64,000 nt of DNA from Lysobacter sp. (lineage in GTDB: Bacteria > Pseudomonadota > Gammaproteobacteria > Xanthomonadales > Xanthomonadaceae). Below the pieces are notes generated by a model. It ran no database searches. It worked only from the letters and a program-made list of their open reading frames with translations, and was not told the DNA's origin. Every line of letters starts with the position of its first letter. The stretch's first letter is position 1. The stretch covers positions 1,401 through 65,400 of the forward strand of contig JBOHYC010000155.1 in NCBI GenBank assembly GCA_050737755.1, in the 5' to 3' direction. This document shows positions 26,787-27,063 of this stretch, piece after piece. The position numbers were made by a program, and so were the translations under genes.

Positions 26787-26829
26787 GGCACTTCTGCGCC
26801 TACTGCGTTGACCCGCACTGCTGCGCGGG
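26787..26829 (-). promoter_or_regulatory. Tandem hairpins (core GCGC-AGNA-GUGC) in the capsid leader
   Basis: CCCGCGC-AGCA-GTGCGGG (26812-26829) and GGCGC-AGAA-GTGCC (26787-26800) just upstream of the capsid RBS. Confidence 0.6.
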
Positions 26830-26844
26830 GATCTGATTCGGTGT

Positions 26845-27063
26845 TCAGTCGGTGCGTGTGGGCACCGGGCGCCGGGCGATGGGATGCCCCGACGCAGGGC
26901 CCACGGTCTGGCCGTGGGCCTTGGTGATCGTTACCGGCGAGTCGCAGGCGATCGCCACGCGGGACCGCCTGCCGGACTTCTCGATGAACTCGATCGACGC
27001 ACCCGCGCCCGCGGGGATCAGCACGACGTCCCCGGCCTCGAGCGTGGTATGCAGCTTTCGCAT
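26845..27063 (-). CDS. CsrA-fold-like small protein (72 aa)
   Basis: Aligns by eye with E. coli CsrA over residues 1-44 with one small gap. Confidence 0.55.
   Translation of the reverse strand: [72 protein letters not shown]

Follow-up and report, generated by a model that had tools for sequence, protein, structure and literature searches.

A CsrA-like gene and paired leader hairpins beside the capsid gene of a Lysobacter prophage suggest phage-owned translational control

Introduction

Phage-borne csrA genes are widespread and are routinely called host-manipulating morons, and the question raised by the prophage locus described here is whether such a gene acts on host genes at all, or on the phage's own capsid production. 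The locus lies in a 64-kb stretch of Lysobacter sp. DNA (64,000 nucleotides, the whole of which is called the window below), where an open reading frame (ORF) of 72 amino acids (aa) with CsrA-like sequence (26845..27063, minus strand) stands between a scaffold-like gene and the major capsid gene, and where two hairpins lie in the messenger leader between this ORF and the capsid start. A first-pass annotation of the sequence had pointed to this arrangement; the ORF and both hairpins were found, on the minus strand, exactly where it had placed them, so the observation is confirmed, and its interpretation, a phage-encoded Csr-type circuit acting on capsid translation, is partly supported. We favour, with moderate confidence and from comparative sequence evidence, phage-owned CsrA-type translational control of the capsid by the adjacent small protein, the phage gene probably acting on its own capsid production rather than on host genes.

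The gene family has been known for some time. A gene annotated as 'CsrA-like regulator' or 'carbon storage regulator' occupies the same slot in cultured phages (RefSeq; PHROGs family phrog_8397), among them Ralstonia phages GP4 and Cimandef, Burkholderia phages DC1 and Bcep22, Serratia phage Parlo, Klebsiella phage SopranoGao, Pseudomonas phages Itty13 and Skulduggery, and Erwinia phage PEp14; members of the phrog_8397 family include Bcep22 gp54, BcepIL02 gp49, DC1 gp46, JC1 gp47 and a protein of Klebsiella phage LASTA. Sobrero and Valverde counted GP4, DC1 and others as csrA-positive phages, found that about 1% of phage genomes carry csrA, and reported that the Burkholderia hosts of csrA phages are without a chromosomal csrA (PMC7366521). 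The JC1 homologue was labelled a moron, and one peptide of it was detected in purified virions (PMC9144972); the moron view, in which the gene affects host physiology, recurs elsewhere (PMC9144972, PMC8310193). Knock-down of the csrA homologue of E. coli phage PTXU04 by CRISPRi-ART led to smaller plaques, in a report that called csrA's role in the phage cycle untested as of 2025 (PMC11879866). The first-pass annotation had known of no earlier description, and this needs to be divided: the gene in this slot was on record (RefSeq, phrog_8397; PMC9144972, PMC7366521, PMC11879866), but full-text literature on phage CsrA yielded no paper linking the gene to the capsid leader, and, as far as the literature searched goes, neither the conserved cis element nor its linkage to the gene appears to have been described.

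Results

The small protein is, by profile and predicted fold, a very diverged CsrA-superfamily member

Profile comparisons and a structural model both place the small protein in the CsrA superfamily, as a very diverged member. With a family profile built from a 34-sequence alignment, in which the window protein is the first row, the top nine matches in the PDB were nine CsrA-family chains (RsmE 2jpp, E 2.9e-7; Yersinia CsrA, 5.7e-5; E. coli CsrA, 1.9e-4), and hhalign against a CsrA alignment gave 92.9% probability (E 3.8e-7) over residues 4-49. Remote representatives of the family bridge the window protein to known families: 26 of the 27 aligned members match phrog_8397 'CsrA-like regulator' (best E 1.2e-9), and eight of the 27 match the Pfam CsrA family PF02599, all below its gathering score. 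The curated PF02599 cut-off of 27 bits is reached neither by the window protein nor by its relatives, the best of which (P0021) scores 25.1 bits (E 1.7e-5). The canonical '...R-l-x-I-D-A-P-x-x-V...' motif is present in many of the relatives that were reached by way of the capsid gene. Run against the host genome in six frames, the family profile picked out the phage gene at 3.8e-24 and the host csrA at 4.9e-5, and a class-wide genome search returned mostly host csrA genes, which serves as a control on homology.

The close family is small, with 10 clusters in 5.8 billion proteins and 19 representatives in 1.8 billion; a tblastn search of 50,697 phage records with the window protein gave no match, and scans of viral contigs with family members P0019 and P0020 gave none. 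A reading of the protein as a cupin was rejected, the Cupin_3 and vicilin PDB matches resting on one short motif and being outranked by CsrA once the profile was broadened.

The alignment to E. coli CsrA claimed at the outset, with lysine at the R44 position, was reproduced by MAFFT, hmmsearch and hhalign, and membership of the CsrA superfamily is supported both by the profile (2jpp, E 2.9e-7; hhalign, 92.9%) and by the fold of the AlphaFold monomer. AlphaFold2 predicts five strands in the monomer (residues 2-9, 13-15, 22-30, 33-40 and 45-47), with a predicted local distance difference test (pLDDT) score of 92-95 over residues 1-50 and a tail modelled as low-confidence coil with no helix; the best PDB matches of this model in Foldseek are RsmF/RsmN (probability 1.00/0.97, TM about 0.5). 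The layout is thus a beta core of residues 1-48, a variable linker and a conserved C-terminal motif, with a short insertion of 2-3 residues in the beta2-beta3 loop (IPAGAGAS). The column of CsrA L2 keeps a hydrophobic residue (L4) and that of CsrA L4 holds T6; K48 aligns with CsrA R44, at which most clade members have arginine. Across the family the beta5 h-x-h-x-R/K pattern is conserved, as is a basic KSGRRxR hairpin. We infer that the small protein forms a dimer, with which the presence of two hairpin sites is consistent, though only indirectly.

The C-terminal motif is specific to the window's clade. It reads [IVL]-A-R-R-P-[VT]-P, and I-A-R-R-P-V-P in the window protein (residues 62-68; 26848-26868, minus strand), follows a hypervariable linker rich in proline and alanine, and stands in the place of the CsrA C-terminal helix. 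This ARRP tail might make an arginine-rich contact with RNA, or might serve as a docking peptide.

Two conserved hairpins precede the capsid start

The gap of 81 nucleotides (nt) that separates the 72-aa ORF from the capsid gene reads, on the sense strand, UGA-...CCCGCGC-AGCA-GUGCGGG-UCAACGCAGUA-GGCGC-AGAA-GUGCC-...AAGGAGA-N6-AUG. By folding and comparison it contains a distal hairpin, hp1, of 7 base pairs (bp) with loop AGCA (26829..26812), an A/C-rich single-stranded linker (26801..26811), and a proximal hairpin, hp2, of 5 bp with loop AGAA (26800..26787), followed by the Shine-Dalgarno sequence (SD) AAGGAGA (26776..26770), all on the minus strand. The end of hp2 lies 23 nt before the AUG and about 10 nt upstream of the SD, and the starts of the two hairpins are 27 nt apart in the window and 27 to about 33 nt apart in relatives. 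Both hairpins share the 12-mer GCGCAGNAGTGC, of which the 64 kb hold exactly two copies, both in the capsid leader.

The structure is conserved well beyond what its surroundings are. The predicted fold of the leader beats 200 of 200 shuffles (z = -3.15). Among 17 distinct close leaders both hairpins are nearly invariant and the flanks have diverged, and for 16 diverged leaders RNAalifold returns a consensus made up of exactly hp1 and hp2. In these 16, compensatory changes occur at three outer pairs of hp1, and the apical C-G closing pair and the G.U wobble next to it are invariant in both hairpins (16/16). Column identity is 0.89 in hp1 and 0.99 in hp2, against 0.60 in the rest of the leader and 0.84 in the first capsid codons. 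Hairpins of the form GC-ANNA-GU with at least 5 bp number 82 in 69 leaders, taking as leader the 100 nt before the capsid gene at each of 69 loci (11.9 per kb), and 10 in the 336 kb that form the rest of the same loci (0.03 per kb), which is an enrichment of about 400-fold in capsid leaders. No Rfam family matches the leader in the window. Because the G.U wobble is invariant, the stem covaries and the spacing varies, the comparisons argue for an RNA element on the sense strand, not a DNA operator.

The SD itself lies within a weak anti-SD/SD mini-hairpin, UCUC-CAAG-GAGA (26770..26781, minus strand); in relatives the arms are UCUC/GAGA, GAUUC/GAAUC (as in GAUUC-AGGA-GAAUC), AUUCUC/GAGAAU or UUUC/GAAA, and in some of them a GGA is exposed in the loop of this mini-hairpin.

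A wider regulon in the prophage was considered and set aside, the exact motif being confined, within the window, to the capsid leader. Four look-alikes were found (6724-6745 and 25405-25418 on the plus strand; 14267-14281 and 33203-33218 on the minus strand), and are put down to chance because all lie inside or antisense to coding sequence; the one at 6724-6745 is a 9-bp hairpin, AGGUCGC-GC-AGCA-GU-GUGACCU, which repeats the GC-AGCA-GU apex antisense within a 3598-aa ORF.

The gene and the hairpin are kept, and lost, together

Linkage was followed in 43 close loci (prophages of Stenotrophomonas, Thermomonas and other Lysobacteraceae, IMG/VR contigs and metagenome assemblies), ten more distant ones, and 56 further loci gathered with the capsid protein as bait, at 51-68% capsid identity; IMG/VR contains 524 capsid relatives. 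Among the relatives found that carry the gene, the order scaffold, CsrA-like gene, capsid is kept. Almost all of the 56 capsid-bait loci have a small CsrA-like ORF just upstream of the capsid gene, four of these ORFs (L121, L127, L098 and L136) being marginal against the family hidden Markov model (E 3e-3 to 3) and assigned by eye, and in almost all a hairpin built as stem-GC-[4-5 nt A-rich loop]-GU-stem precedes the capsid AUG by 28-55 nt. The hairpin is thus present in nearly every locus that carries the gene.

All five lineages without the gene are also without the hairpin (L115/L132, L140, Vibrio phage 1.205.O and F116-like phages; the L140 locus is identical to L143 and L146). In the capsid tree L115/L132 and L140 each branch from within the carriers and count as two separate losses, so that gene and hairpin were lost together at least twice within the clade, and both are absent from two outgroup lineages. 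The covariation and co-occurrence that the first-pass annotation had looked to are borne out, in the 16 leaders and in the repeated co-loss. L115, L132 and L140 are in effect natural 'deletion mutants', in which the scaffold gene abuts the capsid gene and the leader is short with a strong SD.

The one seeming exception is the Ochrobactrum phage POI1126 (L181), which has a hairpin with no adjacent gene, the protein being encoded 1.4 kb upstream: in its record (5920-7451), three small reverse-strand genes separate the CsrA-like gp06 from the capsid gene. The hairpin, GCGC-AUGAC-GUGC, stays with the capsid leader, and this shows that the element belongs to the capsid message. In cultured phages a sigma-70-like promoter lies just upstream of the hairpin, which thus stands at the 5' end of a dedicated capsid transcript; near-consensus promoters such as TTGCAA-17-TAAAAT and TTGCAT-17-GATAAT are found between the CsrA-like gene and the hairpin, examples being L056 at about 5600-5660, L058 at about 12170-12200 and the leaders of L179-L185. 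In the window's clade a second hairpin stands in place of a promoter between the regulator and capsid genes.

Loop classes follow lineages, and the host encodes its own CsrA

The loop is AGGA in GP4, AGGAG in DC1 and AGGAU in Bcep22; it is AAGAC in Parlo, Itty13 and SopranoGao, AUGAC in PEp14, Mwe-JY07 and POI1126, and UGGAU in Skulduggery. The loop classes AGGA, AUGA, AAGA and AGNA follow lineages, the AGNA class being the window's clade (support 100/100 in the capsid tree), which has the second, distal hairpin with a loop free to vary. Loops of AGGA type occur where the proteins are closer to canonical CsrA, in GP4, DC1 and Bcep22. That these have AGGA and the window's clade AGNA makes the altered loop specificity proposed at the outset a reasonable reading of the sequences.

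Arginine at the CsrA-R44 column pairs with G at loop position 2 (28/39 against 1/18 by sequence, p = 2e-6), although the association collapsed to lineages (6/10 against 1/9) gives p = 0.057, which is not significant. Two sister pairs, L066/L142 and L141/L103, switch the residue and the loop base together. This co-variation is suggestive of protein-RNA co-evolution, and is not proof of it.

The host genome encodes one canonical CsrA/RsmA, outside the window (contig C220:4522-4677), and a PF02599 scan of that genome found only this host csrA; two CsrA-fold proteins would thus be present in the cell during phage development. Loops with GGA are found in Burkholderia and Ralstonia phages, and non-GGA loops in phages of Klebsiella, Serratia, Erwinia and P. 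aeruginosa and in Xanthomonadales prophages. The proposal of a circuit orthogonal to host CsrA accordingly fares unevenly: this clade has no GGA, but Skulduggery, a phage of P. fluorescens, keeps UGGAU. Insulation from host CsrA through non-GGA loops was set aside on this mixed record as speculation only.

The surrounding prophage head module

The 64-kb window carries a Bcep22-like podophage prophage in a host of Lysobacteraceae type, the prophage being judged by the gene order of its head module and by a single 3598-aa ORF. On the minus strand, and in the order of transcription, the head module consists of the large terminase gene (31210..32772), a P22-like portal gene (28037..30274; PF16510, E 2e-157), a 327-aa scaffold-like gene (27067..28050; phrog_8246, E 1.2e-17, function unknown), the 72-aa CsrA-like ORF, the 370-aa major capsid gene (25651..26763; PF13252, E 9e-55; phrog_334, E 9e-105), a 138-aa virion protein gene (25145..25561) and, beyond a terminator, genes for an SU10-type adaptor and a head-closure protein. 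The scaffold-like protein has an acidic, Ala-Pro-rich N-terminus and a coiled-coil middle. The major capsid protein is of the PF13252 / 'N4-gp56 family' type, and its gene is presumably the target of regulation. The terminator that follows the 138-aa virion gene (25120..25093, minus strand) is strong and intrinsic, with a 12-bp stem and a U tract, and probably marks the 3' end of the head transcript.

The 3598-aa ORF (525..11321, minus strand) occupies the late region's distal end, and in position alone it is like the giant virion proteins, DarB-like or 'polyvalent', that Bcep22-like phages encode (DC1 gp67, JC1 gp69 and PTXU04 gp25).

The ATG of the small ORF begins 3 nt past the TGA of the scaffold-like gene, with no clear SD of its own, and a scaffold/CsrA-like spacing of 0-15 nt is repeated in those relatives that have no intervening small ORF (DC1, GP4, Cimandef and Bcep22 have an extra gene there). 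Because of this narrow gap and its repetition, the 72-aa ORF is probably translationally coupled to the scaffold-like gene. A search of positions 25000-33500 of the window for sigma-70-like promoters found none, and the capsid gene is therefore probably read from the same long late transcript as the scaffold.

Discussion

A proposed switch on capsid translation

CsrA dimers bridge two hairpin sites in a messenger leader near the ribosome-binding site (RBS). We propose that the prophage uses the same principle on its own late message: the CsrA-like protein would be made in step with the scaffold through translational coupling, and a CsrA-fold dimer would bind hp1 and hp2, 10-60 nt upstream of the capsid RBS on the same polycistronic late mRNA, each hairpin offering a C-G closing pair, a G.U wobble and an A-rich AGNA tetraloop. 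Such binding would modulate initiation at the capsid RBS and so set the translation of capsid against that of scaffold. The homology, the fold, the conservation and covariation of the hairpins, their genomic linkage to the gene and the co-loss of the two are what we observe; from them we infer direct binding, an effect on translation and a role in the capsid:scaffold ratio. As to the direction of control, we lean slightly towards repression or titration, by analogy with classical CsrA; alternatively binding may activate, by remodelling the leader. A stronger version, in which the protein and its hairpins form a self-contained viral switch with its own co-evolved RNA code (AGGA, AUGA, AAGA or AGNA) that meters capsid against scaffold and in which phage protein and host GGA-specific RsmA are here mutually blind, is attractive but more doubtful, and we hold it only tentatively.

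Several observations weigh against capsid control by a CsrA-type protein. Searched alone, the window protein has only a Cupin_3 motif match in Pfam, with no PF02599 match at E <= 1, and its match to phrog_8397 is weak (E 0.052, residues 3-49). The Foldseek E-values of the model are weak as well (0.02-0.09), the C-terminal helix of CsrA is missing, and the beta1 residues Arg6 and Arg7 of CsrA are Leu8 and Glu9 here. Classical CsrA repression sites overlap the SD, which neither hairpin does here, and five gene-carrying loci (L098, L136, L067, L107 and L125) have only variant or unclear hairpins; the loss of significance of the arginine/loop association at the level of lineages belongs here also. 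Finally, a helix that would hide the start codon by pairing it with the 3' arm of hp2 (GUGCCGU/AUGGCAC) appears in the minimum free energy folds of most leaders, and was set aside as evidence: its energy is ordinary when compared with 20-nt windows drawn at random from the same loci, a fraction of 0.23-0.73 of which do as well or better, so that the sequence gives no handle on the direction of control.

Alternative explanations

If the hairpins were generic stabilisers or processing signals of the highly expressed capsid message, acting as 5' stem-loops or an RNase site, the CsrA-like protein could act elsewhere and be joined to them by synteny. This would fit a literature in which the gene is a moron with effects on host physiology (PMC9144972, PMC8310193), the lie of the hairpins clear of the SD, and the classic position of the hairpin at the extreme 5' end of the promoter-proximal capsid transcript in cultured relatives. 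But a stabiliser requires structure, not sequence, and here the outer stems covary, whereas the apical C-G pair, the G.U wobble and the A-rich loop either do not vary or differ only by class; moreover gene and hairpin have disappeared together from independent lineages, the loop base shows a tendency to shift with the residue at the CsrA-R44 column, and in all carriers the gene belongs to the core of the head module, coupled to the scaffold, which is atypical for a moron. We regard this explanation as unlikely, though it deserves to be taken seriously. The conserved G.U wobble also counts against the two 12-bp repeats being DNA operator sites or late-promoter elements, since it forms only in sense-strand RNA. 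Near-identical direct repeats (GCGCAGNAGTGC) 27 bp apart would suit a DNA-binding protein, but the outer stem of hp1 shows compensatory changes, the distance between the repeats ranges from 27 to about 33 nt, a single copy is all that many relatives have, and no sigma-70-like promoter lies in 25000-33500; this reading is scarcely credible.

The other two explanations accept an RNA element and give it another reader. The small protein might be a component of head assembly or of the virion that happens to have a CsrA-like beta fold, its ARRPxP tail docking on scaffold, portal or capsid, with some other factor reading the hairpins. Its gene does sit between those for scaffold and capsid, it has a conserved peptide motif beyond a flexible linker, the CsrA helix and beta1 arginines are lost, and purified virions yielded one peptide of the JC1 homologue; but a single peptide is weak evidence, as its authors say (PMC9144972), the beta5 h-x-h-x-R/K pattern and the basic KSGRRxR hairpin are retained in the family, and neither co-loss with an RNA element nor the arginine/loop association would be expected of a purely structural protein, so that such a role seems improbable to us. 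It is more improbable still that host CsrA/RsmA reads the hairpins, tying capsid synthesis to host physiology with the phage protein as decoy or antagonist. The host genome does encode a canonical CsrA, and the AGGA loops of the Burkholderia and Ralstonia relatives are like canonical CsrA sites. Against this, the loops of the window's clade are AGCA and AGAA, with no GGA, the AGGA-loop phages infect hosts reported to have no chromosomal csrA (PMC7366521), and the element tracks the phage gene, not the host gene.

If the phage protein does control the capsid through its leader, a gene family usually assigned to host manipulation gains a concrete and testable role in capsid translation, with a cis target beside the gene that is conserved from Burkholderia to Microcystis phages. 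The leader element defines an RNA motif with no Rfam match in the window; the natural series of proteins and loops (AGGA, AUGA, AAGA, AGNA) could show how CsrA folds change their RNA specificity, and the phage protein/hairpin pairs could supply orthogonal translational regulators.

Comparison with known systems

The bacterial proteins CsrA, RsmA and RsmE (PF02599) share with the window protein a small five-strand beta fold, the profile covering RsmE/CsrA residues 2-47 with K or R at R44, whereas the window protein stays below the Pfam gathering score and is without R6/R7 and the helix. In layout the leader is comparable to CsrA target leaders such as those of glgC and hcnA, with two hairpin sites 27 nt apart near the RBS, but its loops are without GGA and neither site lies on the SD; and in contrast to the global regulon of CsrA there is one adjacent cis target here, no other leader in the window having the motif. 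The best structural match of the model, RsmF/RsmN of Pseudomonas aeruginosa (PDB 4k59, 4kji, 4krw), is itself a diverged CsrA-family member with a rearranged order of secondary structure; it has an internal helix between beta2 and beta3 where none is predicted here, and identity is 18-22%.

The phages of the phrog_8397 family have the same slot (portal, scaffold, in some a small ORF, CsrA-like gene, PF13252 capsid) and a homologous hairpin with GC...GU apex before the capsid gene. The window's clade differs from them in its beta2-beta3 insertion, in a Pro-rich linker and ARRPxP tail with no C-terminal helix, in having two hairpins, not one, with 4-nt AGNA as against ANGA(N) loops, and in being without a promoter between the regulator and capsid genes; it is thus a variant in its own right, marked by its two sites, its AGNA loops, the lack of a helix and the ARRP tail. 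CsrA-family genes are carried by other mobile elements too, as RsmQ of plasmid pQBR103 and CsrT/CsrR of a Legionella integrative conjugative element. The proteins of these elements are near-canonical, with GGA sites in host mRNAs as their targets (PMC9928087, PMC4471563), whereas the window protein is highly diverged and travels with its own cis element in a virion-assembly operon.

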